Assembly (NCBI GenBank): GCA_964457085.1
Contig: CAYWDM010000002.1
Location: 203,418 to 267,417, forward strand
Length of the DNA stretch: 64,000 bases
Reading direction: 5' to 3'
Source: an uncultured Pseudomonadales bacterium
GTDB taxonomy: Bacteria; Patescibacteriota; Microgenomatia; UBA1400; PJMF01
Positions 4,193 through 56,015 of the stretch are shown piece by piece. The translations under genes were made by a program, and so were the position numbers. Below the pieces are notes generated by a model that saw only the letters and a list, made by a program, of their open reading frames with translations, ran no database searches and was not told the origin of the DNA. Within the stretch, counting starts at the first letter, position 1. Each line of letters starts with the position of its first letter.

Positions 4193-4298
4193 TTGGAAGG
4201 AATTTTTGTATATACCTTAAGTAGAGTCAACAGAAACGATTACTGGCTTAATCAGCTTGAGATCATAACTTAGTGCGGAGAGTTGCACACAACGACAT

Positions 4299-5093: not shown

Positions 5094-5096
5094 GAC

Positions 5097-5732: not shown

Positions 5733-5735
5733 AGA

Positions 5736-6041: not shown

Positions 6042-6053
6042 GGAATTATTACA

Positions 6054-6887: not shown

Positions 6888-6899
6888 GGTTATAAAACT

Positions 6900-7184
6900 A
6901 TGTCGAGATCAAGTAAAAAAGGACCATACATTGACCCAAAGCTGATGACTAAAGTCAGTAAGCAGAAGTTAAGTGGTGACAAAGCTGGTATCAAAACTTG
7001 GAGTCGCGCTTGCGTGATTGCTCCAGATTTTGTTGGCCACACCTTCATGGTACATCAAGGTCGCAAATTTATTGAGGTATTCGTTACTGAAGCCATGGTT
7101 GGACATACTTTGGGTGAGTTTTCTCCCACTCGTACTTTCCGTGGTCACGGTAAAGTCATTAAACGAGTGTTGAGTAAGACTTAA
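6900..7184 (+). CDS. rpsS: 30S ribosomal protein S19
   Basis: [14 protein letters not shown]...[11 protein letters not shown] matches S19. Confidence 0.95.
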
Positions 7185-7203
7185 CATTTGAAAGTGGATT
7201 AAC

Positions 7204-7683: not shown

Positions 7684-7688
7684 ATAGT

Positions 7689-8339: not shown

Positions 8340-8357
8340 CTCAACTAGGTACTTACT

Positions 8358-8762
8358 ATGTTACAACCAAAGAAATCAAAACATCGCAAAGCCTTCCGAG
8401 GTAAAATTCGTGGCGTCGCGATTCGTGGCTCACAATTAGCCTTTGGTGAATTCGGTCTTCGTGCCACCACCAGTGGTCGCGTGACTGCTAAACAAATTGA
8501 AGCTGCTCGTAAAAAAATCTCCTTTGTGACCAAGCGTGTTGGTAAATATTGGATTAAGATTTTCCCTCACAAGCCATTCACTTTAAAACCACTTGGAGTC
8601 AAGATGGGCTCAGGTAAGGGTGCTGTGGATAAATACGTCGCTTCAATCAAACCAGGAATGATTCTATTCGAACTTGGTGGTGTGACTGAAGAGATGGCTA
8701 AAACTGCATTTACAAAAGCTGGTCATAAATTATCGGTGCAGACTGCCTTCATCAAGAAATAA
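8358..8762 (+). CDS. rplP: 50S ribosomal protein L16
   Basis: MLQPKKSKHRKAFRGK...GSGKGAVDKYVA matches L16. Confidence 0.95.
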   Translation: MLQPKKSKHRKAFRGKIRGVAIRGSQLAFGEFGLRATTSGRVTAKQIEAARKKISFVTKRVGKYWIKIFPHKPFTLKPLGVKMGSGKGAVDKYVASIKPGMILFELGGVTEEMAKTAFTKAGHKLSVQTAFIKK

Positions 8763-8774
8763 TCGGAAGTTATC

Positions 8775-8972
8775 ATGAAACACAAAGACATTGCTATCCT
8801 TCACCAAAAAACCACCACTGAGTTGGAGGTTGAATTGGAGAAGTTACTTAAAGAGTTAACTAAAGCTCGGTTGGAAAAAGCCACCGGCAAGCTCAGCAAT
8901 GTGGCATTGGTTCACACTTTGGCAGATGACGTTGCTAGAGTGCGTACCATCATAAAGGAGAAACTCGTATGA
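8775..8972 (+). CDS. rpmC: 50S ribosomal protein L29
   Basis: 65-aa coiled-coil protein located between L16 and S17. Confidence 0.85.
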   Translation: MKHKDIAILHQKTTTELEVELEKLLKELTKARLEKATGKLSNVALVHTLADDVARVRTIIKEKLV

Positions 8973-9211
8973 GAACCATCATCGGTAAAGTGGTTTCGTT
9001 AAAAACCCCACAGACTGCACAAGTGTTGGTGACTCGCCAATGGCAGCATCCCTTGTACAAGAAGTCGGTAAAACGAAGCAAAAAATACGCCTGTCACGTG
9101 AGCGAACTCGAGTTGGCAATGGGTGACAAGGTGGAAATTGCAGAGTGTGCACCTATCAGTGCTACGAAGCGATTTAAAGTAGTTTCCAAGATTGCGATTA
9201 AGGCATCTTAA
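8969..9211 (+). CDS. rpsQ: 30S ribosomal protein S17
   Basis: GKVVS.KTPQTAQVLVTR...YKKSVKRSKKYACH matches S17; there is a 4-nt overlap with L29. Confidence 0.9.
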   Translation: MRTIIGKVVSLKTPQTAQVLVTRQWQHPLYKKSVKRSKKYACHVSELELAMGDKVEIAECAPISATKRFKVVSKIAIKAS

Positions 9212-9281
9212 CCGTATAATATGCTTCTCCTGAAAAGGGGTAAGCAGTCAAGACTAAAATATAATTTGACTGGTACAAAAA

Positions 9282-9656
9282 ATGATACAGTTACGTTCGG
9301 TACTACAAGTAGCAGATAACAGTGGCGCAAAGAGAGTTCGCGTCATCCAAGTTTATGGTGGCTCAAAACGCCGCTTTGGCTATGTGGGTGATGTGGTCTG
9401 TGCTTCAGTAATCGTGGCAAGTCCTCAAGGTACACTTAAAAAAGGTGCTAAGATTCGTGCTGTGATTGTTCGCACTCGCAAAGAGAGCCGCCGCAGTAAT
9501 GGTGAGTACATTAAATTTGATGATAACGCAGTAGTGATCGTCGAGGCTCGAGATAACCCCAATCCAGTTGGAACTCGTGTTTTTGGTCCAATCGCTCGCG
9601 AAGTCAAAGATAAAGGTTTCGCCAAGATTTCCAGTTTAGCCCAGGAGGTACTATGA
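9282..9656 (+). CDS. rplN: 50S ribosomal protein L14
   Basis: [17 protein letters not shown]...VIVRTRKE matches L14. Confidence 0.95.
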
Positions 9657-9985
9657 AGTTACATATCGGCGACAGAGTTTTAGTTACTGCTGGTAAAGAC
9701 AAAGGCATTAAAAGTGAGATTACTAAAGTGATCCCTAAAGAGGCCAAAGTCGTGGTGAAGGGTGTGAACATTTACACTAAACACGTTAAGCCAATGGGTG
9801 ATCGCCCAGGTGAAAAACGCAAGATAGAACGACCTTTAGATATTGCTAAGGTGGCTATCTTAAATGACAAAGATCAAAGAGACAGAGTGGGATATAAAGT
9901 TATGGCTGATGGTCGCAAAGAGCGAGTATTCAAGAAGACTGGTAAGGTCGTTCCTGATGCTAAACAGCCAGCTAGTAAGAAATAA
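9653..9985 (+). CDS. rplX: 50S ribosomal protein L24
   Basis: [18 protein letters not shown] (KOW motif) plus operon position. Confidence 0.9.
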
Positions 9986-9987
9986 CT

Positions 9988-10554
9988 ATGAACCGTTTGA
10001 AGCAGAAATACCAATCAGAAGTGATCGCAGCTTTAACCAAAGAGTTCAAGCACGCTAATGTTTTTGAAGTCGCTACTGTGAAGAAAGTTACTTTGAACAT
10101 GGGTGTGACTGATCCTCAAGAGCCAAGAGCTCGCGAGCGAGTCATCGCTGGCATCATGAAGCAATTTGAATTAGTTGCAGGCCAAAAGCCAATGATGACC
10201 AAAGCCAAGAAAGCCATTGCTAACTTTAAGTTACGTGCTGGTGATCCACTCGGAGTCATGGTGACTCTTCGCGGTGAGTTAATGTGGGAGTTCATGGATA
10301 AATTGATCTCAATCACCTTACCTCGTGTCAAAGATTTTAGAGGTGTTTCTCGAAAAGCATTTGATGGTAAGGGTAATTATAGTTTAGGTCTTGAAGAGCA
10401 AATTGCTTTTCCAGAAATTGACTACGACAAGATTGACCGAATTCGCAGTTTACAAGTAAATATTACTTGTAAGTCAAAGAGTGACGCAGAGACATATCGT
10501 TTATTGGAACTCCTCGGCATGCCTTTTGCTAAGGAAGAAGACAAGAAGAACTAA
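9988..10554 (+). CDS. rplE: 50S ribosomal protein L5
   Basis: GVTDPQEPRA...LRGELMWEFMDKLISITLPRVKDFRG matches L5. Confidence 0.95.
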   Translation: MNRLKQKYQSEVIAALTKEFKHANVFEVATVKKVTLNMGVTDPQEPRARERVIAGIMKQFELVAGQKPMMTKAKKAIANFKLRAGDPLGVMVTLRGELMWEFMDKLISITLPRVKDFRGVSRKAFDGKGNYSLGLEEQIAFPEIDYDKIDRIRSLQVNITCKSKSDAETYRLLELLGMPFAKEEDKKN

Positions 10555-10566
10555 GGCAAGATAATT

Positions 10567-10797
10567 ATGGCTAAAAAATCGAAAATTGCTAAAACCGAAA
10601 AAATCCAAGCTCTACGCTCAAAGTATATTGCTTTAGGTGTAAAAAAAGTCAACAAAGTGTCGACTCGAGCAAACAACCGTTGTAAAATCACTGGTCGTCC
10701 CAGAGGTTTTATGCGCTTCTTTGGTTTAAGTAGAATTACATTTCGTGAGCTGGCTGTGAAGGGTGAATTACCCGGAGTAGTCAAAGCCAGTAAATAA
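10567..10797 (+). CDS. rpsN: 30S ribosomal protein S14 (76-aa intermediate, non-zinc form)
   Basis: The C-terminus [39 protein letters not shown] matches the S14 C-terminal signature; the gene lies between L5 and S8. Confidence 0.8.
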
Positions 10798-10814
10798 TTG
10801 AGAAAGATATACTA

Positions 10815-11204
10815 ATGACAGACCCTATTGCAGATATGATCGCCCGCATTAAGAATGCAGTTTTGGCACGCCATGAAACTGTGAGTATTCCTCATTCAGT
10901 TATCAAGCAGTCAATTGCAAAAATTTTGCAAGAGAATGGGTATATCGAGAGTTTTATAGTGACTGATGCTAAGCCTCAGCCAGAGATTATTGTGACCCTT
11001 AAGTATGTTAATAAAGCGCCCGTCATCACTGACATCAAGCGAACATCTAAACCAGGACGCCGCCTTTACAGTGGTTCCGGTTCAGTACCTCGCGTTTTGA
11101 ATGGTTATGGCATGAGTATCTTATCCACCAGTAAGGGTGTGATGAGTAACGCTCAAGCCAGAAAACAAAATGTTGGTGGCGAGCTTATTTGTCAAATTTG
11201 GTAA
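10815..11204 (+). CDS. rpsH: 30S ribosomal protein S8
   Basis: MTDPIADMIARIKNA...GGELICQIW matches S8. Confidence 0.95.
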   Translation: MTDPIADMIARIKNAVLARHETVSIPHSVIKQSIAKILQENGYIESFIVTDAKPQPEIIVTLKYVNKAPVITDIKRTSKPGRRLYSGSGSVPRVLNGYGMSILSTSKGVMSNAQARKQNVGGELICQIW

Positions 11205-11210
11205 ACTTTT

Positions 11211-11750
11211 ATGTCAAAGATCGGCAACAAACCTATTACTCTTCCAGCAAACACTACAGTCGTAGTTGAAAACGGCATGGTGTTGGTGAAGGGACAAAAA
11301 GGCGAGTCACAAGTTTCGCTCCCAGAGCTAATCACTTTGGTCGTTGCTGATGGCTTGGTTAAAGTAACTCGTGCTAATGATGAGAAACAAACCAAATCAC
11401 TGCACGGCTTAGTTCGCAGTTTGGTTTCTAATGCATTAACTGGCGTCACTGTCGGTTACCGCAAAACCCTTAAACTGATTGGTACAGGATATAAAGCTAC
11501 CTCAAAAGGCGTTGGTATCTCGCTCGCACTTGGTTATTCACATCCAATTGATGTGATGCCATTGCCAGGTATTAAAATCACCTTAGAAGGTCAAGATACT
11601 ATTCATGTTGATGGAATTGAAAAAGCAGTAGTGGGTCAGATGGCTGCGGATATCCGCACTCTTCGACCACCTGAGCCATATTTGGGCAAGGGTATTCGCT
11701 ACAGTGATGAAGTAGTTAGAAGAAAGGCTGGTAAAGCTGCAGCCGGCTAA
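11211..11750 (+). CDS. rplF: 50S ribosomal protein L6
   Basis: MSKIGNKPI...GYSHPI...GIRYSDE matches L6. Confidence 0.95.
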   Translation: MSKIGNKPITLPANTTVVVENGMVLVKGQKGESQVSLPELITLVVADGLVKVTRANDEKQTKSLHGLVRSLVSNALTGVTVGYRKTLKLIGTGYKATSKGVGISLALGYSHPIDVMPLPGIKITLEGQDTIHVDGIEKAVVGQMAADIRTLRPPEPYLGKGIRYSDEVVRRKAGKAAAG

Positions 11751-11768
11751 ACCCAGACCAAAATTTGT

Positions 11769-12131
11769 ATGCCAAAAGTAAGTCATAAATTATCAGCCAA
11801 ACAATCTCGCAAACAACGCGTTAGCGGTAAGATGAGCGGAACTGCAGAGCGACCTCGCTTGTCAGTTTTTCGTTCAAATGCTCACGTATTTTTGCAAGCC
11901 ATTGATGATCAGGCTGGTCAAACTCTTGCCAGTGCAAGTAGTTTAGGTAAAAAAGCTGCCAAATCGAAATTAACAAAGACTGAAAGTGCTGTTGCTGTGG
12001 CCAAAACCATGAGTGATGCACTTAAAGCCAAAAAAATATCCGCGGTGGTGTTCGATCGCGGTGCCAGTAGATATCATGGTCGAGTCAAAGCAGTAGCTGA
12101 AGCTCTTCGTGAGTCAGGCGTTAAGGTTTAA
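11769..12131 (+). CDS. rplR: 50S ribosomal protein L18
   Basis: [20 protein letters not shown]...FDRG...YHGRVKA matches L18. Confidence 0.9.
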
Positions 12132-12145
12132 CACATAAGGAATAA

Positions 12146-12922
12146 TTGGTGCAAACACATTCAGGAAAATCACGCATGAACGAACAAGCTAGTAGACGCC
12201 CTAACGCAGGTGAAGAGCGTTCGGACTTTGAGGAGAAAGTAATTTCTATCTCTCGCGTTTCAAAAAAGACCAAAGGTGGTAATAAAGTTGGTTTCTCAGT
12301 GCTGATGGTTGTTGGTGATAAAAAAGGCAAGGTTGGTTTAGGCCTTGGTAAAGCCAATGATGTTGCTTCAGCAATTAAAAAAGGTATCCGCAAAGCTAAA
12401 AAGAAAATGTTGGAAGTTCCTTTGGATGGAACAACCATTCCTTTTGCTATCACTCACAAAAAAGGTGCTGGCAAAGTAATGTTGAAGCCATCTCCAGCTG
12501 GTACCGGTGTTATCGCTGGTGGTCCAGTGCGAGCTGTGGTCGAGGCTGCAGGTATCCGTGATATCTCTGCCAAAATCATGGGTAGTGACAACCAATCTTC
12601 AAGTGTTTACGCTACATTTGCTGCTTTAGAGAAAATTGCTCAAATCGTTGCAGTTAAAAACATTAAACTGCGTTCAATCATTGAGGTTGAAGAGGAAGAC
12701 AAGAAGACACAACAGAAGTTACAAGAAGAAGCCAAGAAGCATGCAGTTGAAAAAGCTGCTGAGACTGCTCCAGTAGCTAAATCAGTCGCTGGAAAAGTTG
12801 CTGCTAAATCAACCGGTGCAGTTGCAGAGAAAACCGCAACTGAAAAGGTTGAAAAACCAGTCAAAAAAGTGATAGCCAAAAAACCAACAGTCAAGAAAAC
12901 AGCAAAAAAAGCTGTTAAATAA
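12146..12922 (+). CDS. rpsE: 30S ribosomal protein S5 with ~85-aa K/A/E-rich C-terminal extension
   Basis: S5 core (RVSKKTKGGNKVGFSVLMVVGD...GTGVIAGG) followed by a histone-like low-complexity tail. No L30 gene follows. Confidence 0.9.
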   Translation: MVQTHSGKSRMNEQASRRPNAGEERSDFEEKVISISRVSKKTKGGNKVGFSVLMVVGDKKGKVGLGLGKANDVASAIKKGIRKAKKKMLEVPLDGTTIPFAITHKKGAGKVMLKPSPAGTGVIAGGPVRAVVEAAGIRDISAKIMGSDNQSSSVYATFAALEKIAQIVAVKNIKLRSIIEVEEEDKKTQQKLQEEAKKHAVEKAAETAPVAKSVAGKVAAKSTGAVAEKTATEKVEKPVKKVIAKKPTVKKTAKKAVK

Positions 12923-12946
12923 TAAGCAGAATTCGTAAAGATCACT

Positions 12947-13384
12947 ATGTCGTTACTACACGCACTTATCAAAAGCACCAAGGTCGGCTCCAAGCGAGTT
13001 GGTCGTGGGTATGGCTCAGGTATTGGTGGCCACACTTCTGGTCGTGGTACCAAAGGTCAGCGTGCACGCGTAGGATCAAAGATTCCATTGTGGTTTGAGG
13101 GTGGCCAATTACCTTTGACCAAGAGATTGCCAATGCTTCGTGGTAAAGCACGTTTTAATGTGCTGAAGCCAACCATTGAATTGACTTTATCCGACTTACA
13201 AGCTTTAAAGATCGACACCATTACCCTTGAGTCACTCAAGCTAAACAAAGTTGTTGATCACAGAGCCAAAAAAGTCAAAATCATCAGTAAAGGTAAGTTG
13301 AGTAAAAAACTGACCATTTCTGGTATCGCTGCTACGCCGATGGCAAAAGCCGCGATCGAAAAAGCTGGTGGTTCTGTTAGCTGA
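12947..13384 (+). CDS. rplO: 50S ribosomal protein L15
   Basis: [26 protein letters not shown] matches L15. Confidence 0.9.
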
Positions 13385-13419
13385 TTTTCCAATCATAGAA
13401 GTTTGGAATAAGGGCAAGC

Positions 13420-25250: not shown

Positions 25251-25337
25251 GGAAGCGTCGCATAGTGGCCTAGTGCAGCGGGTTGCTAACCCGCGGTATC
25301 GAAAGATGCCTCGTGGGTTCGAATCCCTCCGCTTCCG
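25251..25337 (+). tRNA. tRNA-Ser (anticodon GCU), class II with long variable arm; CCA not encoded
   Basis: Hand-folded: acceptor GGAAGCG/CGCTTCC, 3-bp D stem, anticodon stem GCGGG/CCCGC with loop TTGCTAA, an 18-nt variable arm, and T arm GTGGG-TTCGAAT-CCCTC (one U-U mismatch). Confidence 0.7.
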
Positions 25338-25470
25338 CACCGTTTTTCAATCCTGCGAAGCAGGTATTGGAAGACGGTATGAATTGGATGAGAAAGCAAG
25401 GTACCTCGCCAAGCGAGTACTTTGATATAAGTCATAATCGAGCCTGGAAAGGTAAATCCCTCCGCTTCCG

Positions 25471-29848: not shown

Positions 29849-31039
29849 ATGTTGGCACATTTTTCTAGAATTTACCGATTAATTTGTGATTTTTTCACAA
29901 CTGAAAGACGCTATATTTTAGGGCTGTTTATAGTGTCGAGACTCTTTTTCTTTGTGAGTGCATATATCTTGCCACAGTTTGTGATGAAGGGACCTTTTCC
30001 TGAGCAAATATATGACGGAAATGGCATTTTTGATTATTTTATTTTTTGGGATGCAAATTGGTATCAGGTAATTGCAAAGCAAGGTTACTCATTGGTAATT
30101 GGTGGCCAATCAGCCACTGCTTTCTTTCCCTTTTATCCATTACTTACCCGATTAGCTAGCTATATTTTTGTCGATTATAATTTTTCACAGATACTGGTTT
30201 CAAATGTTTCCTTTTTGTTGGCAATGAATGTGTTGTACAAATTGGTGTTGGATGAAAGTAAAAATAGCACAACTGCACGCTTATCATTGATTTTTTTGAG
30301 TTTTAGTTATGGCACGCCTTGGTTGGCTACTGGATATAGTGAATCACTTTTTCTATGGCTAACAATCAGCTACTTTTACTACGCAAAAAAAGATAAAAAC
30401 ATATTGGCGTTTATTTTTGGATTTTTAACTGGCATAACCAGAGGTGGTGCAATATATAGTCTGCTTTTGATTGCAGTAATGTATTCAAAGAAAATGTTTA
30501 CTATCAGCACAAAAAAATTCTTGATGGTATTACTTGTTTCAATTGCTCCATTGATTGGTTTTGTTGCATATTTATTTTTTCTACAACTCGCAGTTGGGGA
30601 TTGGCGAGTTTATTTTCAGACGAACCAGTCTGGTTGGGGGGCAGTGTATACATTCTCACTTGAAGTGATTAAGCAAAAAATCCCGTTGATTGGGTATCAG
30701 TTGGTTACTGCTGATCCACATTTAAATTTTATTAACTGGTCTTGGTTAGGGATGAGTTTTTTTGCAGGACTGTCCATAGTTGTCTTGCTGTGGAAGAAAA
30801 CTGCACTTTGGTTGCCAGCATATATCCTTTGCTTTATTGGTTTTTTTCTGTTCACGCTTCAACGAGAGGGTCTAATGGACTCAATGGCCAGATACTCGAT
30901 TACTGTTTTCCCGATATACTATGCGTTGGGTATTGTCAGCACTCACAGTGAGTTGTTTAAAACTGTGCTGCTCTCACTATTTGTGATGGCTCAGTCGCTA
31001 ATAACAATTATGATTTTTACTGGATACATTGTTAACTAA
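29849..31039 (+). CDS. polytopic membrane protein, possible mannosyltransferase-like glycosyltransferase
   Basis: 396 aa with at least 9 TM helices and aromatic-rich loops; there is no soluble domain. The function is a guess. Confidence 0.35.
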   Translation: MLAHFSRIYRLICDFFTTERRYILGLFIVSRLFFFVSAYILPQFVMKGPFPEQIYDGNGIFDYFIFWDANWYQVIAKQGYSLVIGGQSATAFFPFYPLLTRLASYIFVDYNFSQILVSNVSFLLAMNVLYKLVLDESKNSTTARLSLIFLSFSYGTPWLATGYSESLFLWLTISYFYYAKKDKNILAFIFGFLTGITRGGAIYSLLLIAVMYSKKMFTISTKKFLMVLLVSIAPLIGFVAYLFFLQLAVGDWRVYFQTNQSGWGAVYTFSLEVIKQKIPLIGYQLVTADPHLNFINWSWLGMSFFAGLSIVVLLWKKTALWLPAYILCFIGFFLFTLQREGLMDSMARYSITVFPIYYALGIVSTHSELFKTVLLSLFVMAQSLITIMIFTGYIVN

Positions 31040-31677: not shown

Positions 31678-33105
31678 TTAGGGAGTAGCTGTTTCGGCGA
31701 TAATATCGTCGATTATCTTGTCTACAGAAACGGCACTGCTGGCCATTCCATCAAGATTCAGAGAAATTCGATGTTGCAAGGCGGGGCGAATGAAAGCTTG
31801 AATATCTTCTATTGAAACCGTGGTCCTATTATCCAGCAATGCACGTGCTTTCGCTCCACGTATGATGGCATGTTCACCACGTACTGAAGCTCCAATTTCG
31901 ACATATTTTTGTACTGAGGCAACTGTTGATTTTTTTGGGTGAGTGTTGATTAAAATTTTGCCAGCATATTCAATTAACTTTGATGAAACTGCGATGCTTT
32001 CAATAGTTTTTTGAATAGCTAGTACGTCTTTTACATTGGCTAGTTGTTGGTGTTTTTCATTGTTTTCTCCAACTAATGTTTGTCCAATTATTTGGTTTAA
32101 TACTGATAACTCTGGCAAGTCCAAATGTACTATGAAACCAAATCTGTCCAATTGAGCTTCAGGTAAGGGATATGTCCCAACACTACCATGATTGTTTTGA
32201 GTAGCAATTACGAAAAAAGGCCTGGGTAGGGAGCGCATCCTACCATTTGTTACTTGCCTCTCTTCCATTGCTTCGAGTAGTGCAGCTTGTGTTTTAGGAG
32301 TGGCTCGATTAATCTCGTCAACTAATACGATATTTGCAAATATTGGTCCTTTTTTAAACTCATCGGCATTTTTAGTGCCAGCAGCTCCATGCATTGAAAA
32401 ACCGAGTATGTCTGTGGCCATTAGATCTGGGGTACATTGTATGCGAGTAGATTTTAAGCCTAATATTTTTCCTAATGATTTAGCTAGTTTTGTCTTACCC
32501 AGTCCTGAATTACTCTCTAGAAGTACGTGCCCTCCAGTAAATAAGGCGATGAGAACTAAACGTACTGCCTCCTCCTGACCGATTAGTATTTCATTCAATT
32601 TCTTTTCGACAGTTGCTATTTTTTGAGTTGCTTCTTTGTAGTTAAGCGGTGCCTCATTATTTGACCCAGTTTCCCACTCTTTAAATAAATCAAGGTATGA
32701 TTGCAAAAGCGAAAGTAACTGAGTTAGTTTATCTACAACCTCTGAAGTATCTTCTGTTTTTTTAGGAAATGTGGATTCCAGTTTTCCATCAAAGACTTCT
32801 GCTAACTCAGCAGTATTAATAAGCTCATCAATCTTGTCGATAGCTGTATGAATTATTTTTTCATATAACGCTATTTTTCTTTTGTCTCGTGCAACTTCAA
32901 TGTTACCAATACCTTTGGTTGCATCTTCATACAGATGCAGTGCTGACGCAAAGGTACCACCATCATTGGTGAATAGTTTTTCCTCAAGTACTTCAATCAG
33001 GTTCATAACACTTTGTGCACCTTCAACTTGCAAAGAGTTTATATCTATTGCAGCCTCAATTTGCTGTATTTGCTGTTCTACCTCTGGTCTCATATACAGT
33101 ATCAT
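31678..33105 (-). CDS. MoxR-family AAA+ ATPase with ~170-aa N-terminal coiled-coil extension
   Basis: Walker A NSGLGKTKLAKSLG, RIQCTPDLMATDILG, and Walker B/sensor VLVDEINRATPKTQAALLEAMEERQVT. Confidence 0.8.
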   Translation of the reverse strand: MILYMRPEVEQQIQQIEAAIDINSLQVEGAQSVMNLIEVLEEKLFTNDGGTFASALHLYEDATKGIGNIEVARDKRKIALYEKIIHTAIDKIDELINTAELAEVFDGKLESTFPKKTEDTSEVVDKLTQLLSLLQSYLDLFKEWETGSNNEAPLNYKEATQKIATVEKKLNEILIGQEEAVRLVLIALFTGGHVLLESNSGLGKTKLAKSLGKILGLKSTRIQCTPDLMATDILGFSMHGAAGTKNADEFKKGPIFANIVLVDEINRATPKTQAALLEAMEERQVTNGRMRSLPRPFFVIATQNNHGSVGTYPLPEAQLDRFGFIVHLDLPELSVLNQIIGQTLVGENNEKHQQLANVKDVLAIQKTIESIAVSSKLIEYAGKILINTHPKKSTVASVQKYVEIGASVRGEHAIIRGAKARALLDNRTTVSIEDIQAFIRPALQHRISLNLDGMASSAVSVDKIIDDIIAETATP

Positions 33106-33186
33106 CGTAGCATTTTAAAAATTGAAAAACTACCAATAATCGACAGCAAGTGGTGGTTTGATTGGGATAATCTAGCTATACTGTTG

Positions 33187-36100
33187 ATGATAATGACCGA
33201 AAAAATTAGTATATTTGTTGGCAATAAACTGGCCGAGTTGGGTCTAAAACCACCTAGTTTAACTGATGGATTACTACTTGCTGATGATCCCATCCTGCAT
33301 CGTCATGTCAAACAGCGGATTCGACATAGGTTGGAAGAGAGCGGACAACCACTAAGATCATCGGAAGTTGATGCTGTATTGTCTAATGAAACCTCCATTT
33401 ACTTGATCGAAGAGGTCGAGTTGGAGAGTGTTGACTTTCTAATTGCAAGTGAAAAACTACACAAGCCAGTTTTTGAAAAGATACTGAGGAACATAGCACA
33501 TTTAGACTTTAGAAGTTTTGCGAGTGCACAACAGAGTGAAATCTCTCTTTATGATCCAGAGGTGATTACACCTCAAGTTTCTTGGGCGGTGGAACAAATT
33601 TTTCAAAATTTACCTGGTTTCTTTGAGTCGTTTGAAATAATGATGCAGCATGATCAGGCTTTTGAAGAAGAGCAAACCGATATTGTTCGCAATATCTTCA
33701 TTATTGGATATCTGCATGGCTTTTTAAGCGAGGAAAATCAGAATTTAACCACAGCCAAAGTATTTTTAGCTCATGCTATTAGAAAAAGTAACTCTGACGA
33801 AGAAAAACTAAAGCCATATCCTGCTTTCTTAAGGAGAATAGTGGATAAAGATGAATCAGCTCAGGTTTCACCAAGACTTGAACATCTAAAAAATCATTGG
33901 CTACAGCAACTTGCTCGTCGTTGGTTGTTGTTGTCCAGAACAGATGAAGCTTCAGCTGACACCTTAAGTCAATCGACCAGACAACAGTTGGATGAGCATT
34001 TACCAAAAGACAGAAGACCCGCTGAGAATAGTGCTGTTGCGAGAAAAATGGATTCATTGAATAAAACGAGAACAACATTTCAAGGTGAAGTTGGTAGCTC
34101 CAACGGAAATGCTGATCAGGGATTTAATGAGAGTGCACAAATTAGAGAAGAACTGCAACTTACGGTTGATGTTGCCCAACAGCAACAGTCGACAATTATG
34201 CACATGAGAGATATCTTGCGTCTCTATCAGGGAAATAACCAAGAAGTTTTTCATAATGGTCATCAAAATACAGAAAAATGGTTGCCATTTAAAGTTGCTG
34301 CAGAACCCATTTTGCAAAAGTTAGTTTTAGGTTTTGGTTTGCTTAACGATTCAAAAAATGATGATGCCAGATTTGATTCTGCCGTGGACACAATTGTTAA
34401 ATCAATGATTCAGAGTTTAGCAAATTCTGGTGATGCCCAACACATCAGAGGGATGTTTGGGGCAGATTTTTTTAATTTGGCTCAAGTTGAACAGCTTTGC
34501 TTACTGTCATTTACAGCTCTTTCTTTTATCAATAGGGAGACCAGTACATCTAAGTTGGCAATTCAAATTTTAGATAGAACGGTTATTCCTCGTCTCAATC
34601 AGTATTTCGATTTAGATCGTTACAAAGAGCTATCAACCGAAAATGTACCAGCCTTCAATTTTTCTACTTATGATCAGCGAGTATATGAAGATAAATCTCA
34701 GCACGCAAAATCAGTACTTGGAGATCTGCAGCCAGCTGATGAATTAGTGGGTGTTGATAGTGCTGTTTTTCGGCAGTTGCTTGAAAGAAATAAACAACAA
34801 TTATCAGGTGTCTCCAAGATTTATTCTTTATTTGCTTCACTAACCAGTGAAAACTGGGGAGAACATACGAAGCCGCATACAATAATCTTAGGCGAGATTT
34901 TTGTGATGACGGCTTTTATTTCTGGTCATCTCAACTTTAATTTATCTGAGAGTTTATTAACTGAATCATTAAAAACAATTTTCTCTGAAGACCCATATCT
35001 CTTTTTATTGAAAATAGCCCCAATACCACTAACACTGGCAAGTGGAGCTCTATTGATGGGTGATAAGGCTAGGAAAGACTTTAAGAAATTATTATTATCT
35101 TCTTCAGAATTAAAAAAAGATCTAAAGAAATTTTCTAAAGGTGGATGGAGGCAGATTGCGATGATGCTCATGTTAAGCACATATGCTTTGAGTTCAACCT
35201 TTCCTTTATGGCAAAACCAAGCTGATGAACTGTGGGATTCTGCCAAGGATCGTTGGGAAGAGCTGTTCGATGATGATGAGGTAGTAGAAGGAGAAGATTC
35301 TACTGATGGTATGAGAAATTTTTGGGAGGATAGAAATCCTGAGGCAGTTGATGCCAATGATTTGCTGGACATAGAGAAAGTTGACTGGGGAGAAATTGCA
35401 ATTGAAGAAGACGTGTATGGTAAAGATCCTAATGCCCCAATAGGTTTTATAAACACTTATGTTGTTTCTCCTATAGTAGCTGAGTCTGAGGATCAACAAT
35501 ATAACACTGAGTCAAACATGACTGATTTTGACGCCTTATCTAATGCAGACGATATTATCGTAAATGCGAGTGGCTATGTAATTAGAAATGACGAGATTGA
35601 ATTTACACTTGCAAATGGCGATACCTACATTCAACCTGCTGCAGGTGCAGATTTTGTTGTTAAAAATGGCATAGTTAATGGTCATAATTGGTTTGCAAGA
35701 TTCTTAGAAACAGGCAAATATCTTGACAAAATTATTGTTGTGTCAAAACCTGACAGCCCGAATAATTTTTTCTCCAATGGAGAATTGTTTAATAGATATG
35801 ATTATCCTGACCGATATGTAGCTTCTCTTACTGAGAGTCATGATGAATATTTTGTGGTATATAAAACAAATCCAGATGCTGCAAACGAATTGAATCGATA
35901 TAAGTTGCGACTTGATGAAAATTTAGTCTTTTGGCAAACTCATGCTGCAGATCGAGAAATTGCCCTGACAGTTTTAGAAAAAGAGAATCCAGCAGCAGCA
36001 GCTCTTTATGCACAAATGTTAGCAGAACAGAACCTATTCTGGGCAAATTATGATCCTCAGAATAATCATGAAATTGACTATCTTAAAATGATTGATAAAC

Positions 36101-37389
36101 AGATAACTGCGTATACTCTTTTTGTAAAAACTAACCATGTATACAGTCTTAAATACAAGCCAAAAACGAATTATGCAGAGAAGTATCCTGATGTCGGCGT
36201 TATGCTCGATGTGATGGCACTTAAAAAAGGTGGCTATTATTGTTTAACTGCACATTTGGCTGCACAGGAATGGTTTCTTTCTCTAGGAGTTCCGATGGAT
36301 GGTTTGTATGGATATCATATATATGATGATGCAGGCATGGCTAGATCACGCATTGGTCATGTTCAGACTGGTATTTATGGAGCAGTTCATGATTTTACTC
36401 CTTCCACTCCAAATCCTGGAGAAGATTTACGAGCATTAGATTTCAATAAAAATACTGCTGTGAGTGGACAATTAGATACTCAGGCTGTTGAGCAACCCAC
36501 TATTGTCGATTTATTACAAAAATTTGCAAACGTTGATAATTTATCACTACTTATTCTTTTGTTATCGACAGTGGGAGTTGGATATTCCATTAAATTGGGA
36601 ATACAACAAGCAATGGGTAAAACCACCAAAGATGACTTTGATACAGTAGAACAAGTTAAAAATATTTTGCCCGATACTGAACTTGCATTGAGAGGTTTAA
36701 CCTCGGCATTACTGCAATTATTAAATTTGATTGCAGAAGTTGATCCATCATTTCCAGATAGTGAGGATGGCAGTAAAGACCGAAGGCAGATACTTTCGCA
36801 AATTGTTACGGAGAGTTTGATTTTGGCAACCAAACCCTCAAACACGCAAGCTGAAATATCTAGCAGCATGTCAATGAATCCCGAGGTACTTGCATTGCTG
36901 CAGTTAGTGGGATTAGGTAATGGTACATTGAGTGAGAATGCTCGAGAGCAAGTGGAAAGTTTATGGCAAAAACTCAATAGCAATCAAAGACAGACGAAAC
37001 AGCTACTACAAGAAGTTCTTGGATTACTGGATAGCATATCAACCAACTTCGGAAAAGCATCAGAGATCAAAAGGAAACTGGTGGGTAAGTCAGTGAGAAA
37101 ATTACAAAAGCAACTGATGAGAACGAGAAAAAAAGAAAATAGAATATATGGCATGTATGGTGCATTTTTAGAAAAATCACACTTGGCAAAAGATGAGAAA
37201 ATCAATGAACTTAGAAAATCAATTACTGCAGATTATTTAGCCATTCATCATCAATTAGAGCAACAAAGTAATGAGTTACAACAACTAAACACGCAAGCAA
37301 AACTATTACCTACAAATGTAAAAAGTCTCAAAAAAGTTTTGAGGTTTATGCTTAACCATAGTACAGCACACGACATAGCTCATGAATAA
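33187..37389 (+). CDS. giant hypothetical protein (1401 aa), MoxR-associated
   Basis: The track ORF begins at 33013, inside the divergent MoxR gene. The start is revised to ATG 33187 (MIMTEKISIF), the first ATG after the MoxR start. No recognisable catalytic motifs. One hydrophobic segment (LSLLILLLSTVGVGY) and a C-terminal coiled coil. Confidence 0.55.
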   Translation: MIMTEKISIFVGNKLAELGLKPPSLTDGLLLADDPILHRHVKQRIRHRLEESGQPLRSSEVDAVLSNETSIYLIEEVELESVDFLIASEKLHKPVFEKILRNIAHLDFRSFASAQQSEISLYDPEVITPQVSWAVEQIFQNLPGFFESFEIMMQHDQAFEEEQTDIVRNIFIIGYLHGFLSEENQNLTTAKVFLAHAIRKSNSDEEKLKPYPAFLRRIVDKDESAQVSPRLEHLKNHWLQQLARRWLLLSRTDEASADTLSQSTRQQLDEHLPKDRRPAENSAVARKMDSLNKTRTTFQGEVGSSNGNADQGFNESAQIREELQLTVDVAQQQQSTIMHMRDILRLYQGNNQEVFHNGHQNTEKWLPFKVAAEPILQKLVLGFGLLNDSKNDDARFDSAVDTIVKSMIQSLANSGDAQHIRGMFGADFFNLAQVEQLCLLSFTALSFINRETSTSKLAIQILDRTVIPRLNQYFDLDRYKELSTENVPAFNFSTYDQRVYEDKSQHAKSVLGDLQPADELVGVDSAVFRQLLERNKQQLSGVSKIYSLFASLTSENWGEHTKPHTIILGEIFVMTAFISGHLNFNLSESLLTESLKTIFSEDPYLFLLKIAPIPLTLASGALLMGDKARKDFKKLLLSSSELKKDLKKFSKGGWRQIAMMLMLSTYALSSTFPLWQNQADELWDSAKDRWEELFDDDEVVEGEDSTDGMRNFWEDRNPEAVDANDLLDIEKVDWGEIAIEEDVYGKDPNAPIGFINTYVVSPIVAESEDQQYNTESNMTDFDALSNADDIIVNASGYVIRNDEIEFTLANGDTYIQPAAGADFVVKNGIVNGHNWFARFLETGKYLDKIIVVSKPDSPNNFFSNGELFNRYDYPDRYVASLTESHDEYFVVYKTNPDAANELNRYKLRLDENLVFWQTHAADREIALTVLEKENPAAAALYAQMLAEQNLFWANYDPQNNHEIDYLKMIDKQITAYTLFVKTNHVYSLKYKPKTNYAEKYPDVGVMLDVMALKKGGYYCLTAHLAAQEWFLSLGVPMDGLYGYHIYDDAGMARSRIGHVQTGIYGAVHDFTPSTPNPGEDLRALDFNKNTAVSGQLDTQAVEQPTIVDLLQKFANVDNLSLLILLLSTVGVGYSIKLGIQQAMGKTTKDDFDTVEQVKNILPDTELALRGLTSALLQLLNLIAEVDPSFPDSEDGSKDRRQILSQIVTESLILATKPSNTQAEISSSMSMNPEVLALLQLVGLGNGTLSENAREQVESLWQKLNSNQRQTKQLLQEVLGLLDSISTNFGKASEIKRKLVGKSVRKLQKQLMRTRKKENRIYGMYGAFLEKSHLAKDEKINELRKSITADYLAIHHQLEQQSNELQQLNTQAKLLPTNVKSLKKVLRFMLNHSTAHDIAHE

Positions 37390-40300
37390 TCAGGAATTTT
37401 TATCAGTTGAACCAGAAGGTAAGCAAATAGATACTGCAGTGGATGCAGCAGCCTCTGAGTCTGATATGTTGGAGCTTAAAATTGCTGAAATTTTGGGTCA
37501 ATCCTCTGTAGATTTTATTGAAAAGACTGTTTCTGAACATTTGGGAGATGGTTATGAAAGCAATGACTTAGGACTTGTTGAAAAAATTAATTTAATTTTA
37601 ATCTTAGCTTCAAAAAAGAAAATAGTTGTCTCATCTGGATTACTACGAGCTGTAAAGAGTGTCACTACTATTTTGCCGAATGGTCAAATTGATATCGAGT
37701 ATCTAATCCATCTAAAAGGTGAAAAAAGAAAACACTTATTTCAAGTTATAAGTTCATTGATTCTATTGCTTGGATTAAGTTTCGGTGTCGGAAATGAATT
37801 AGTTGGTCGGATTCAAAATACGGAGAATCGAAATAAAGTTGAGTTGTCAGCAAGTGCGGTTGATGATGAGAATGCTAAGGCATTGGAGTCACGAACTAAA
37901 TTTGAAAGACAATTTAGTAGTGATCTGGAGACTGTAGTGGCAGAGATGGGATGGCAAGACTTCTTAGGTGAATATACCAAAGAAAATAATGAGAGTGTGT
38001 GGTCATCAGAGGAGGTTTTCCAGTTGTTGCGCACACAAGAGCCACGGTATTGGGGTTATTACATCATCGCTTATCCAAATACTTTTGTCGAAGCTGTTGA
38101 TACTTCACAAGTATCACAAGTTGAGTTTATGAGTTCGTGTGGTGATGTCCGCTTTTTCAGTTATTTACAGACTCAGATGGGTGGTGACGTTACTTGGCTT
38201 GATTTGTGGAGTGCTGATGAATTGTTCGAAACACTTAGAATGACAAACCCAAATTGGGGAAAAATAGTGGCAAATAATCAGGTGTTATTTGTTGGTGTTT
38301 TGGATAGAGAAGATTTGACACCACTGGTTCACATGCTAGCTCCTACTGCTAATTCTGCAGATATGCACTATTTCTTGAGAGATTACGAAAACGACTGGGA
38401 TCAGACATGGTCAAGGCGAGAACTTTTAGATGCAATGAAGGCAGACGGTAGTGTCAGCTGGGGGTTCTATGTAAAGCGCTACATGCACCTTTTTGCGAGC
38501 GACATAACCGAAGAAGAATTGTCGGAAGTTATAGAGGATATTTCATTTAGCAGTTCAGGTCTTTACCCTAGCACAAATGACTTAGCATTTTTTTCTGACT
38601 ACTATAAATTGCAGCTTTATGAGGTCGTTGATCCTGCAGCATTTGTACGACTTATTGAAACACATTTTAGCAAAGAAATTGCAGCTCAAATTCTTGCTAA
38701 TTATCCAGAGTTAAATCAATTAGAGCAAAGTAACATTGAGCGATTATTTGAAACTGAAGCAATTAATTATGTATTAGATAACTATGCTCAGTGGGAGTCT
38801 GTATATCCAATAGTAGATATCATGACCTTTTTACGGGACAGTGACCAGAAATATCATTACGCTTTAATTGTGCCGCATCCAGAGTTGTTTCAAGAAATAT
38901 CATTCACTGATGATGAGGTTGTCTTACTTGCTTTTCGAAACAATTTTATGGAAACAACTGGTGAAAAAAAGAAATTTTTTCACAACTATCAGGGACAATT
39001 TGGCTGGGAAAATCAAATTCCTGTGGAGAGAATGCTGAAACTTGGAAGAAGTAAACCAGGTGACGGTATGTATACTGCCGCTCTTTATTTTCCAGAAATA
39101 TTTTTACCTCATTTCACGGATGAGGATATGTATCAATTAGTGCTTTCAAATTCTATTGATTTAGAAGAAGTGGATGTTTTACATTCCACAAATCCAATCT
39201 GGAAACCTTTTACCACTGTAGAGCGTAGGCACACGATGCTTGAATTAGCAAAAAATGATACTGAGCAAGATTGGGAAGAGTTGGTGGCTTCTAGATTCTA
39301 TTTTTTTGAGGATATTTTGACTTTTGATGAAGCAAAAGATATTTTGAGTAAGTATCACTCTAGTACCATTAGAAATAGTCCGCTTTGGCAGAACAACGTA
39401 ACTCCTGAGTGGGAATATTCTTTTTTCAAAGAATCAAATGAAGATATTTTTATTCATTTAATTGCCAATGATCCTGTCTATTTTAGTGAGCAACTTACAG
39501 AAGGTGATAAGTTGTTGGTGTTAAAAAATAAACCAGAGGTAATATTAGATAATTATCTTTTTTGGCAAAAGTTTTTTTCACCAGAATTTATCTTAGACTA
39601 TTTTTACAGTGGTCAGAGTGCGGAGAATTATGGTTATTTTGTTTTAAGAAACAAACACATATTTGGGCATGTTTTTTATAACAGTGGATATGATTTAAAA
39701 AACTCAATTATGCATGGTGGATTAGATACCCTGTTTGATACTAACTATGATACCGACCAATATTACTATGAGGAGTGGTCCGAGTTCGTAAGCATTGAAG
39801 AATTGTTTTACATACTGGAAGGATTTGAAGATGGCAGAGTGAAGATACTTACCAGACCAAACTTATTCTTTGAATTTGTTGAGTTTTCTGACCTAAACCA
39901 GTTTGTGCAAACTGAACATTGCATTTCAGCATTACTAGGTAGCTATGACGATTGGCAGGAGTTATGGAGCTTTGCAGATATCTATGAGGCTGTTAAGGCT
40001 ACTGATCCAAGTTATTCGGCATTCGAACTATTTAGCAGTGATTATGCCGAAGATTTTATTAAATTGACTAGCCATGATGATTTACAATTTTTGATCAGGT
40101 CATATCCTGATGACCTCTCGTATATATTTGGGAGTAACTTGGAAATACTCTTGAAAAAATGGACTGCTGAAGAAATATTAACGGCTCTAAAACAAGAACA
40201 TCCAGATACCTGGGGTGCATTCGTAACGGATGGAATTGTACATTTTGATGCGTTATTATCGCAAAGTGATTTAGAATCGCTGATCGCTCATGGGGCAAAT

Positions 40301-40594
40301 CCGGCTGGATTAATGGAGACTGGTTTGTGGGAGGTAGACGAAGTCTTTGATGTCTATAAAAATAATTTCCCTGAAAAGTGGGGAGAAATTATTCTTACTA
40401 ATAGTGAAATTTTCATGGAGGAGGTTATTCGAAGAGACGTGTCATTACAACAGCTACTTGAGTTTACAGACATTACTATCGCATACGAATATACATACTA
40501 CTGGAGAGATGTCTGGTCAGAAATTGAGATTGAAGACGCTCTGCATGCAGTGTATGGAGATGCACTTCCAGTATATGATGAGGCAGCTGGTTAA
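37382..40594 (+). CDS. giant hypothetical protein (1070 aa) built from ~12-14 degenerate ~75-aa tandem repeats
   Basis: The start overlaps the upstream stop (ATGAATAA). Repeats follow the pattern [D/E]E[V/L]F..L....P..WG..[I/V]...P.LF.E........L (e.g. EEVFQLLRTQEPRYWGYYIIAYPNTFVEAV, DELFETLRMTNPNWGKIVANNQVLFVGV, EEILTALKQEHPDTWGAFVTDGIVHFDAL). The protein is acidic and aromatic-rich. Confidence 0.6.
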   Translation: MNNQEFLSVEPEGKQIDTAVDAAASESDMLELKIAEILGQSSVDFIEKTVSEHLGDGYESNDLGLVEKINLILILASKKKIVVSSGLLRAVKSVTTILPNGQIDIEYLIHLKGEKRKHLFQVISSLILLLGLSFGVGNELVGRIQNTENRNKVELSASAVDDENAKALESRTKFERQFSSDLETVVAEMGWQDFLGEYTKENNESVWSSEEVFQLLRTQEPRYWGYYIIAYPNTFVEAVDTSQVSQVEFMSSCGDVRFFSYLQTQMGGDVTWLDLWSADELFETLRMTNPNWGKIVANNQVLFVGVLDREDLTPLVHMLAPTANSADMHYFLRDYENDWDQTWSRRELLDAMKADGSVSWGFYVKRYMHLFASDITEEELSEVIEDISFSSSGLYPSTNDLAFFSDYYKLQLYEVVDPAAFVRLIETHFSKEIAAQILANYPELNQLEQSNIERLFETEAINYVLDNYAQWESVYPIVDIMTFLRDSDQKYHYALIVPHPELFQEISFTDDEVVLLAFRNNFMETTGEKKKFFHNYQGQFGWENQIPVERMLKLGRSKPGDGMYTAALYFPEIFLPHFTDEDMYQLVLSNSIDLEEVDVLHSTNPIWKPFTTVERRHTMLELAKNDTEQDWEELVASRFYFFEDILTFDEAKDILSKYHSSTIRNSPLWQNNVTPEWEYSFFKESNEDIFIHLIANDPVYFSEQLTEGDKLLVLKNKPEVILDNYLFWQKFFSPEFILDYFYSGQSAENYGYFVLRNKHIFGHVFYNSGYDLKNSIMHGGLDTLFDTNYDTDQYYYEEWSEFVSIEELFYILEGFEDGRVKILTRPNLFFEFVEFSDLNQFVQTEHCISALLGSYDDWQELWSFADIYEAVKATDPSYSAFELFSSDYAEDFIKLTSHDDLQFLIRSYPDDLSYIFGSNLEILLKKWTAEEILTALKQEHPDTWGAFVTDGIVHFDALLSQSDLESLIAHGANPAGLMETGLWEVDEVFDVYKNNFPEKWGEIILTNSEIFMEEVIRRDVSLQQLLEFTDITIAYEYTYYWRDVWSEIEIEDALHAVYGDALPVYDEAAG

Positions 40595-42498: not shown

Positions 42499-43401
42499 AT
42501 GTCAGAAAAATTGGATACTCCAATAGCAAATGAATTGCCCCAATTAGAGATTCCACCCGAAAGCTTGGTTGAAAGTCCAGTAACTCTAGTCAAAACAAAT
42601 CAGAAAAAGCCATTTTTTTTGCTGTTATTGCTGTTGGCAATGGTTTTTGTCAGCATTGGAGTTTGGCTATTCACTCAAAACCAGTTCTCTCAGAAACAAG
42701 TAACAGAAGATACGCTTGAGGAGGAGATGCAGCTAGCTGAAGAATTATCGCCTACACCCAATCCAGGCGAATTTCCATTTGAGGAGGATCAATCATTGGT
42801 TGCAACTGATGAGGCGACTCCTAGTCCAACAGTGGCAGTTAAGTCTGGTGTGTATACAGTGAAGATGACTTTGCTCGATAGTTTAAAAAAACCGACTACT
42901 CAAAATGGATATTTTACTTTGGTTAAATATCTTGCATCGCGGCTCAAATTTTCTGCTGATGAAGCTGCTGTTTATTTTGATACACGAATTACCCAGGACA
43001 TGAATCGTGATAGTGGTATGTTTAATGGTCAATATATTTTGTGGCTCAAATCTGGATTGTTAGAAACTCCAATTGAGGATGAAGATGGCTTTGTGAAGTT
43101 GTTAGTGACTTCACTGGATGAAAAAATCATACCGTATCTACACAATCCACAAACAAATGCCAATGACGCAATGTATTGTGAAGTGAATGGTGACTGCTCT
43201 GTTCGAGATAATATTTGTTCGATTGGTGCATACAATTCATACCAAATATTTGTCGATGTCTATGGTTGTGGTCCTGATGGACAGTACGAAATTAGTAAAG
43301 ATGGTAGTTGTTGGCGTAAAAAAAAGCTCAGCAATCCTCGCTGTATTAAGAATACTTGTACTGCCACAGTTGAACTGGGTGTTTGTCAGTCTGGCCCCTA
43401 G
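42499..43401 (+). CDS. membrane-anchored secreted protein with Cys-rich C-terminal domain
   Basis: N-terminal TM (FFLLLLLLAMVFVSIGVWLF), an acidic linker and 10 Cys in the last 90 aa. Confidence 0.5.
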   Translation: MSEKLDTPIANELPQLEIPPESLVESPVTLVKTNQKKPFFLLLLLLAMVFVSIGVWLFTQNQFSQKQVTEDTLEEEMQLAEELSPTPNPGEFPFEEDQSLVATDEATPSPTVAVKSGVYTVKMTLLDSLKKPTTQNGYFTLVKYLASRLKFSADEAAVYFDTRITQDMNRDSGMFNGQYILWLKSGLLETPIEDEDGFVKLLVTSLDEKIIPYLHNPQTNANDAMYCEVNGDCSVRDNICSIGAYNSYQIFVDVYGCGPDGQYEISKDGSCWRKKKLSNPRCIKNTCTATVELGVCQSGP

Positions 43402-55927: not shown

Positions 55928-56015
55928 GGAGAGGTCGCATAGTGGCCTAGTGCAGCAGTTTACTAAACTGCCGTATCGCAAGATACCCAGGGTTCGAATC
56001 CCTGCCTCTCCGCCA
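55928..56015 (+). tRNA. class-II tRNA, Ser-like paralog with atypical anticodon loop UUACUAA (anticodon ACU); CCA encoded
   Basis: Acceptor GGAGAGG/CCTCTCC, the same D arm as the tRNA at 25251, anticodon stem GCAGT/ACTGC, a 16-nt variable arm, and T arm CAGGG-TTCGAAT-CCCTG followed by GCCA. Confidence 0.65.

Follow-up and report, generated by a model that had tools for sequence, protein, structure and literature searches.

A predicted membrane-anchored protein of 13 acidic helical repeat units, encoded beside a MoxR-type ATPase in uncultured small-genome bacteria

Large proteins are mostly unannotated in the group of uncultured small-genome bacteria considered here, and the open reading frame (ORF) at 37382..40594(+) of a 64-kb stretch of contig CAYWDM010000002.1 (64,000 nucleotides, hereafter the window) raises the question of what kind of repeat its 1070-residue product is built from and what such a protein may do. 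An earlier sequence-only reading had described the whole product as some 12-14 degenerate tandem repeats of a solenoid type that it could not match to a named class. Our analysis shows that the product, translated from an ATG start, carries 13 full units and a partial 14th, and that the first 206 residues are not repeat. The unit of ~65 residues is an uncatalogued repeat family, distinct from HEAT, ARM, TPR and WD40, and the protein is predicted to be acidic, all-helical and tethered to the membrane, a structural description in which we have high confidence. Its gene is the last of a three-gene module, together with the genes of a MoxR-type ATPase and of a large partner protein, that recurs between unrelated neighbours, and the function of this module is weighed in the last section.

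The tandem array and its distribution

The array extends over residues 207-1044 and comprises units of 56-71 residues each (mean ~64.5; unit starts are listed in Table 1), which is shorter than the period of ~75 residues first proposed. All six peptides quoted as examples in the sequence-only reading are present, at residues 210, 279, 346, 479, 930 and 986. The consensus of the unit is W-x3-E-[IVL]-[FL]-x2-[LM]-[KR]-x3-P-x1-2-W-G-x2-[IV]-x3-P-x-[ILF]-F-x3-[IVL]-x3-[DE]-L-x2-[LIV], in which the conserved P..WG noted before is retained as P-x1-2-W-G, and the cleaner copies end in G-W-x-E-L, merging into the W of the next unit.

BLASTP of the protein against itself returned the identity match alone, and off-diagonal Smith-Waterman alignment and hidden Markov model (HMM) tests were used in place of this self-comparison. 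The best off-diagonal self-alignment scored 218, as against 48.7 +/- 6.8 in 20 residue shuffles, that is 25 standard deviations above composition-matched shuffles, and bears out the internal periodicity that had been read by eye. An HMM built from the six example peptides detected five additional units, and a core HMM (units 1, 2, 3, 12 and 13 of five orthologues) found four additional units at 2 bits or more, compared with 0.01 expected per shuffled protein. Iterated self-trained HMMs were not counted as evidence because their scores rise circularly. A non-circular test is provided by a foreign-family HMM trained only on the repeats of three proteins with a second architecture (P0148, P0154 and P0156, described below), which recovered 12 units at 2 bits or more (0.03 expected) and the 13th at -0.6 bits, all of them in register, and which scored the whole protein at 136.5 bits (E = 1.9e-41). 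Pairwise hhalign of the unit profiles showed units 1, 2, 3, 7, 12 and 13 to be clearly alike, related pairs reaching a probability of 75-97; divergence is strong in the middle units, and this comparison is insufficient alone because it connects six of the 13. The self-alignment, the HMM scores and the in-register foreign-family matches therefore establish the array as real. An acidic, aromatic-rich helical protein might be thought to mimic repeats by its composition, as the seven units that are weak singly (<6 bits) and the limited reach of the pairwise profiles would allow, but the excess over composition-matched shuffles and the foreign-family result refute such an artefact, the helix pattern is also periodic in the structural model, and we give this explanation virtually no credence.

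Conservation is spread evenly over the array, with a pairwise identity of 0.38-0.52 per unit across the five orthologues and no unit gained or lost. The protein contains 17.4% Asp+Glu compared with 7.2% Lys+Arg, as well as 25 Trp, and every unit has a net charge of -5 to -10. That acidic units fixed in number are so evenly conserved speaks for a single constrained structure comprising the entire array. The partial 14th unit, reduced to its first helix, is probably a cap.

A word-indexed search of 5.8 billion proteins yielded five orthologue clusters, consisting of the window protein and relatives that are 57, 49, 44 and 41% identical to it, all of 1058-1079 residues. The NCBI copies of the 57% cluster are annotated as "hypothetical protein" in several metagenome-assembled genomes of Candidatus Pacebacteria/Paceibacterota. 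Source samples include SRR12261223-25 and the JGI samples 3300025845 and 3300025150, the latter two containing the 57% orthologue. When the unit profile was run exhaustively with HMMER against 1.84 billion representatives, it returned 13 proteins, namely the orthologues with four gene fragments of them, three proteins of the second architecture, and three spurious matches (P0152, P0155 and P0157) that were rejected by eye as unrelated simple tandem repeats. The search of metagenomic proteins that the sequence-only reading had recommended thus reveals a rare family, made up of one orthologue group and one second architecture, and the repeat is extremely rare, with ~5 orthologue clusters and one other architecture among 1.8-5.8 billion sequences. 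Three additional metagenome loci fall in lineages already known, no relative was found on viral contigs, and the repeat occurs in no other ORF of the window or of the compared loci.

The proteins of the second architecture, P0148 (1637 residues; L011:1120-6033), P0154 (1521 residues; L012:10001-14566) and P0156 (1323 residues; L013:10001-13972), carry three to nine very regular units, at the C-terminus only, behind an N-terminal region of 850-1290 residues without a Pfam match. Homology of their units with those of the window is supported by profile E values of 1e-39 to 1e-5 and by a reciprocal E of 1.9e-41, and they carry W-x3-E-[IL], P-x2-W-G and P-E-I-F-K-E motifs like those of the window units. 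They lack signal peptides and transmembrane segments, and their genes stand alone among housekeeping genes with no MoxR or partner gene nearby. The proteins are 27% identical to P0148, and their conserved N-terminal region includes an ALWD...KMLTRNNL motif; homology of this region of P0148 with the 1398-residue partner was considered and rejected (hhalign probability 0.8%).

Predicted fold, membrane anchor and relation to known repeats

An AlphaFold2 model of the repeat protein, built on the alignment of the five orthologues, has a mean predicted local distance difference test score (pLDDT) of 75, which reaches ~80-90 over residues 190-1060 and falls to low values only within the first 180 residues. 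According to DSSP the model consists of helices only, four to five short ones per unit, laid out as a helix A of 10-11 residues, a P-x2-W-G turn, two short helices (B and C) that meet at a conserved proline, and then helices D and E. Helix A is the acidic helix of the sequence-only reading, whereas the "beta-like stretch" of that reading is modelled as helical and coincides with the proline-kinked helices B and C. The conserved Trp, Phe and Leu of the units are probably buried, and the lack of a systematic drop in pLDDT at most unit borders suggests that the modelled units pack on one another. The predicted all-helical tandem array agrees with the solenoid type that had been proposed; a helical tandem repeat is of a known kind, and the array would probably form a solenoid or rod.

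The view that the unit matches no named repeat class has also held. Hmmscan against Pfam-A detected no TPR, HEAT, ARM, Sel1, WD40 or other family at E <= 0.01 for the whole protein and at E <= 10 for unit-rich fragments, a sub-threshold zinc-finger match being the only one for the whole protein, and neither NCBIfam nor PADLOC gave a match. Profile searches of PDB sequences returned only centrin (E = 0.05, 14.5 bits, residues 308-396) and a neurotoxin (E = 0.17). Centrin, and with it an EF-hand pair, was rejected as there is no Pfam EF-hand match and no conserved Ca-binding loop of the DxDxDG type in the ortholog or unit alignments. HEAT, ARM, TPR and Sel1 repeats place two to three helices in ~34-47 residues, whereas the present unit has four to five helices in its 56-71 residues, and the four-stranded blades of ~40 residues that characterize WD40 and other beta-propellers have no counterpart in a model essentially devoid of beta structure and a protein with no such Pfam match. 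The alpha-solenoids (HEAT, ARM and TOG, as in importins, CRM1, PP2A-A and CAND1) are among the closest known systems. The best structural neighbours in a Foldseek search against the PDB were generic alpha-solenoids (CRM1, importins, Ski3 and mTOR; E ~1e-3), yet the template modelling (TM) score is ~0.12 in a model with a predicted TM score (pTM) of 0.48. In architecture the (L)WY module, likewise of five helices, comes closest, although the likeness is too weak for a claimed relationship (PMC11799481), and the combination that defines the tandem (L)WY modules of oomycete RxLR effectors such as PSR2, namely five helices, conserved L, W and Y motifs and a loop-in-pocket link within a secreted RxLR protein, was not found here. 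What is new is an unusually long repeat unit (~65 residues, four to five helices) that no catalogue holds, helical scaffolds themselves being well known.

Judged from its hydrophobicity profile and from the conservation of the predicted anchor (Table 1), the repeat protein is a putative single-pass membrane protein. The 20 residues upstream of the transmembrane helix have a net charge of +1 to +3 in all five orthologues, owing to a conserved K-R-K cluster, and the 20 residues downstream a net charge of 0 to -3. By the positive-inside rule this asymmetry favours an orientation with the N-terminus inside and the C-terminus outside (N-in, C-out), in which residues 1-117 are probably cytoplasmic. 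Neither the predicted anchor nor the three-gene context described below figured in the sequence-only reading.

Table 1. Coordinates in the window of the repeat protein, its parts and the other elements of the module
Feature	Residues	Position	Strand	Remarks
MoxR-family AAA+ ATPase		31678..33105	-	Pfam AAA_3 1e-49 (165 bits), AAA_lid_2, AAA_5; divergently transcribed
Conserved divergent control region (putative)		33127..33182	.	inverted repeat and CTAGnTATACT element
Partner protein	1-1398	33193..37389	+	no known domain; orthologues 47-62% identical
N-terminal region of repeat protein	1-117	37382..37732	+	no likeness to units (control blocks in hhalign); conserved motifs LDFIEKT and LVEKINL; low AlphaFold2 confidence
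Single transmembrane helix (predicted), HLFQVISSLILLLGLSFGVGNELV	118-141	37733..37804	+	Kyte-Doolittle 19-residue mean 2.04; conserved in 5/5 orthologues
Linker	142-206	37805..37999	+	conserved KFERxxS and MGW motifs; no unit match
Unit 1	207-275	38000..38206	+	foreign-family HMM 28.8 bits; hhalign probability 97 with unit 13
Unit 2	276-342	38207..38407	+	foreign-family HMM 26.8 bits; hhalign probability 97 with unit 3
Unit 3	343-412	38408..38617	+	foreign-family HMM 15.5 bits; hhalign probability 97 with units 2 and 7
Unit 4, degenerate	413-474	38618..38803	+	foreign-family HMM 2.8 bits, in register; orthologous unit in P0002 14.9 bits
Unit 5, degenerate	475-545	38804..39016	+	foreign-family HMM 4.1 bits, in register; contains DIMTFLRDSDQKYHY, an example of the sequence-only reading
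Unit 6, degenerate	546-610	39017..39211	+	core HMM and foreign-family HMM both 2.1 bits, in register
Unit 7	611-673	39212..39400	+	core HMM 8.7 bits; hhalign probability 97 with unit 3
Unit 8, degenerate	674-731	39401..39574	+	foreign-family HMM 5.8 bits, in register
Unit 9, degenerate, Tyr-rich	732-798	39575..39775	+	core HMM 3.7 bits, foreign-family HMM 2.3 bits, both in register
Unit 10	799-861	39776..39964	+	foreign-family HMM 17.5 bits
Unit 11, weakest	862-926	39965..40159	+	seed HMM E = 6e-5; foreign-family HMM -0.6 bits, in register
Unit 12	927-982	40160..40327	+	foreign-family HMM 35.1 bits
Unit 13	983-1044	40328..40513	+	foreign-family HMM 27.8 bits
Partial unit 14 (WSEIEIEDAL...), then stop codon	1045-1070	40514..40594	+	W-x3-E-I start; single model helix at residues 1047-1061; weak seed-HMM match at residues 1041-1054

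The three-gene module and its surroundings

The repeat gene follows that of the partner, which is separated by an intergenic gap of 50-100 nucleotides from a MoxR-type ATPase gene on the opposite strand; the partner measures 1398-1418 residues across lineages. The ATG of the repeat gene overlaps the partner stop codon by 8 nucleotides (ATGAATAA in the window), and this overlap, as well as the gene order and orientation, is the same in four lineages (the window, L005-7, L008 and L009). In a fifth lineage, represented by a short contig (L010), the order is again the same, with the partner split in two, a 4-nucleotide overlap with the repeat gene and an ATPase gene truncated where the contig stops. 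The rarity of the repeat protein is matched by that of the partner and of the MoxR with the long N-terminus, and the genes that flank the module are entirely different (housekeeping) in each lineage. The partner and repeat genes probably form a conserved, translationally coupled operon, and the fixed association of the repeat protein with MoxR and a large uncharacterised membrane protein provides a concrete three-protein module in uncultured small-genome bacteria.

The ATPase shows a readable Walker A (GLGKT) and Walker B (VLVDE) in its translation and also passes the bpMoxR profile (29.6 bits, 29.6-31 overall, with a cutoff of 27), far below its AAA_3 match at 165 bits. Its length is 470-476 residues across lineages, its placement and direction are unchanged in L005, L008 and L009, and it begins with a helical N-terminal extension of ~150 residues that is found in only ~5 clusters, all of this module; the thousands of other MoxR matches are of ~335 residues, lack the extension and are 45-47% identical over the AAA part. 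The database copy (471 residues) starts four codons further downstream than the longest ORF, and the second Met, at 33093, is probably the true start.

Between the divergent genes, the intergenic DNA has a mean column identity of 76% across lineages, compared with 50-62% identity of the flanking proteins, and this higher conservation of the DNA suggests that the two genes are regulated together. It contains an inverted repeat of 8-9 bp, AAACTACCA (33127-33135) -N15- TGGTGGTTT (33151-33159), which four of the five lineages retain, with a single change on both sides; a CTAGnTATACT element occurs in every one of the five. The latter includes a TATACT resembling a -10 box (33177-33182), 11 nucleotides upstream of the partner ATG and similarly close in the other lineages, where the equivalent regions are L005:5735-5808, L008:5708-5781, L009:5724-5796 and L010:557-630. 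This intergenic stretch may serve as an operator or fold into a short leader hairpin.

No Pfam, NCBIfam or PADLOC match was obtained for the partner, which forms only six clusters among the 5.8 billion proteins, in the same lineages as the repeat protein, and is somewhat better conserved than the latter. It has four conserved hydrophobic segments (residues 564-582, 603-621, 655-673 and 1119-1137), and the region of ~430 residues between the third and fourth contains an invariant motif, GGYYC(1017)xTAH...RIGH(1056)V...D(1067)FTPS (36241-36393), or more fully GGYYC-x-TAHLAAQ-x-WFLSLGV...GLYGY...RSR-x-GHV...DFTPS-x-PNP, whose Cys, His and Asp are spaced by 39 and 11 residues in a predicted helix-strand-strand pattern. 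The local pattern G-x-C-x2-A...G-V-P...G-Y...H...D-x-T-P recalls what we take to be a transglutaminase-like core and is offered as a lead only, a papain/transglutaminase-like core being supported by no profile or fold search of the partner. A search of the partner for a conserved DxSxS MIDAS motif found none besides the DFTPS at residue 1067. The transmembrane helix of the repeat protein (SSLILLLGLSFGVG, 37751-37792) and the last segment of the partner (LSLLILLLSTVGVG, 36547-36588) have in common an S-x-[LI]-I-L-L-L...G-[VI]-G pattern in all orthologues, and such similar motifs fit helix-helix packing; read from the alignments, the common Ser/Gly-spaced pattern could be a packing motif or the remnant of a shared origin.

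Two further ORFs flank the module in the window, one at 29849-31039 (396 residues, ~6 hydrophobic segments) and one at 42499-43401 (300 residues, one N-terminal hydrophobic segment, eight Cys). Neither has a Pfam or NCBIfam match, and according to the gene tables neither is apparently kept beside the module in other lineages. Elsewhere in the window, a ribosomal-protein operon (~3860-13400), with identities assigned from gene order and size, includes S5 (12146-12922, a long form of 258 residues) and, 24 nucleotides further, L15 (12947-13384), with no L30 gene between them. Absence of L30 is typical of, and not exclusive to, the candidate phyla radiation (CPR), and the S5-L15 arrangement without L30 fits a CPR organism. 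ARAGORN also detected a tRNA-Ser with the anticodon ACT, that is with A at the wobble position (55928-56015), which shares 88% identity with its paralogue, the tRNA-Ser(GCT) of 25251-25338; to our knowledge, A34 outside tRNA-Arg(ACG) is unusual in bacteria.

Proposed function and comparison with known systems

Taken together, our data incline us slightly towards a reading in which the repeat protein is a helical repeat scaffold, tethered to the membrane, in a complex serviced by MoxR, with the functional part of this reading, taken by itself, tentative and somewhat short of an even chance. The array would act as a rigid or semi-rigid scaffold held at the membrane and, in the N-in, C-out orientation, would stand on the cell surface beside the ~430-residue external domain of the partner. 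The repeat protein and the partner would be made in fixed proportion and form a complex, which a cytoplasmic MoxR hexamer might then assemble, mature or switch via the cytoplasmic parts of both membrane proteins, by analogy with other membrane or envelope complexes on which MoxR ATPases act in this way. The long, acidic, aromatic-cored array would not be an enzyme and would instead give proteins, envelope polymers or cations a surface to bind to.

Several points weigh against this reading. The domains usual in MoxR clients (vWA/MIDAS/DUF58) were not found by Pfam in either large protein or in fragments of them, although the partner, whose structure prediction was of low confidence, may hold a cryptic one. 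No result points to a ligand, at the pTM quoted above the array may be a superhelix, a straight rod or a chain of jointed beads, and the model comes from an alignment of five sequences only. The operon is inferred from five lineages. The positive-inside rule is also the single argument for the C-out topology, and since the proteins of the second architecture have neither signal peptide nor transmembrane segment, the repeat can evidently work in the cytoplasm.

This last point leads to an alternative that we consider rather unlikely, in which the same module has the opposite topology, the array being cytoplasmic, anchored on the inner side of the membrane alongside the 560-residue N-terminal and 260-residue C-terminal cytoplasmic regions of the partner, and serving as a direct client or adaptor of the MoxR ring. 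P0148, P0154 and P0156, the only other proteins with the repeat, are without a signal peptide or a conserved hydrophobic segment, MoxR is itself cytoplasmic, and an array with only two Cys is acidic like many cytoplasmic proteins. However, the charge asymmetry around the transmembrane helix, which is the signature of an N-in, C-out protein, is found in every orthologue, and export of a charged N-terminus of 117 residues without a signal peptide would be unusual.

Two other explanations carry less weight. It is improbable, in our judgement, that the repeat protein is a modular host-targeting effector or adhesin of an episymbiont, similar to tandem (L)WY effectors, in which each unit would present a different host-binding surface, since the units are fixed in number and evenly conserved and the protein has a membrane anchor and an operon. 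A very improbable explanation is that it serves as the sensor of a MoxR-based conflict or defence system, akin to the MoxR-vWA ternary systems in which a repeat sensor signals to the ATPase; MoxR-vWA sensing systems with surface repeat proteins have been described (PMC13622651). The ATPase exceeds the bpMoxR cutoff and has a weak PADLOC match to DolB (4.5e-6), and the flanks of the module are unrelated from one lineage to the next, yet no vWA, beta-propeller, nuclease, TIR, caspase, kinase or FHA domain was detected, the AAA_3 match is far better than that to bpMoxR, the flanks are housekeeping genes rather than defence islands, and viral contigs gave no match. PADLOC, which covers anti-phage systems, gave no match for either large protein and only weak generic AAA matches for the ATPase. 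The membrane-tethered scaffold in a MoxR-serviced complex is the reading we prefer. A bolder version of it, to which we attach low probability, would see the module as an undescribed, lineage-restricted membrane machine of Paceibacteria-type CPR bacteria, in which a MoxR motor drives a polytopic protein, possibly a papain/transglutaminase-like Cys-His-Asp enzyme of the outer face, coupled to a surface rod of 13 acidic modules that attaches to or remodels the envelope of a partner cell. In that version the repeat would found a structural family of its own, a 'WG' module of five helices that a second family of giant soluble proteins also carries. The practical yield is modest, namely the definition of a Pfam-type family and an envelope complex that is a candidate for structural work, and no new biological principle is as yet indicated.

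Among known systems, the scaffold reading finds its closest parallels in gene clusters built around MoxR. In the Bat-like operons, an ATPase is encoded beside membrane proteins and a TPR protein, which have been proposed to assemble into an envelope complex of unknown function (PMC5700661). These Bat-like (Bacteroides aerotolerance) operons resemble the present module in combining an ATPase of the MoxR-proper type with membrane proteins and a helical-repeat protein, and differ from it in having DUF58 and vWA (BatA/BatB) proteins and a TPR repeat, where the module has a single partner of some 1400 residues with no known domain. The PFNA cluster of Bifidobacterium groups MoxR with an FN3 protein and a membrane transglutaminase (PMC8430577), and such MoxR-DUF58-transglutaminase clusters share with the module the proximity of MoxR to a polytopic membrane protein and to a large surface protein that is not an enzyme. 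MoxR ATPases are widespread and their clients mostly unknown, and a module without detectable vWA or DUF58 would widen the known client range. The module has the ATPase of the MoxR-vWA/Bat-like systems and lacks their vWA/DUF58 neighbour, and is therefore analogous to these systems rather than a member of them.

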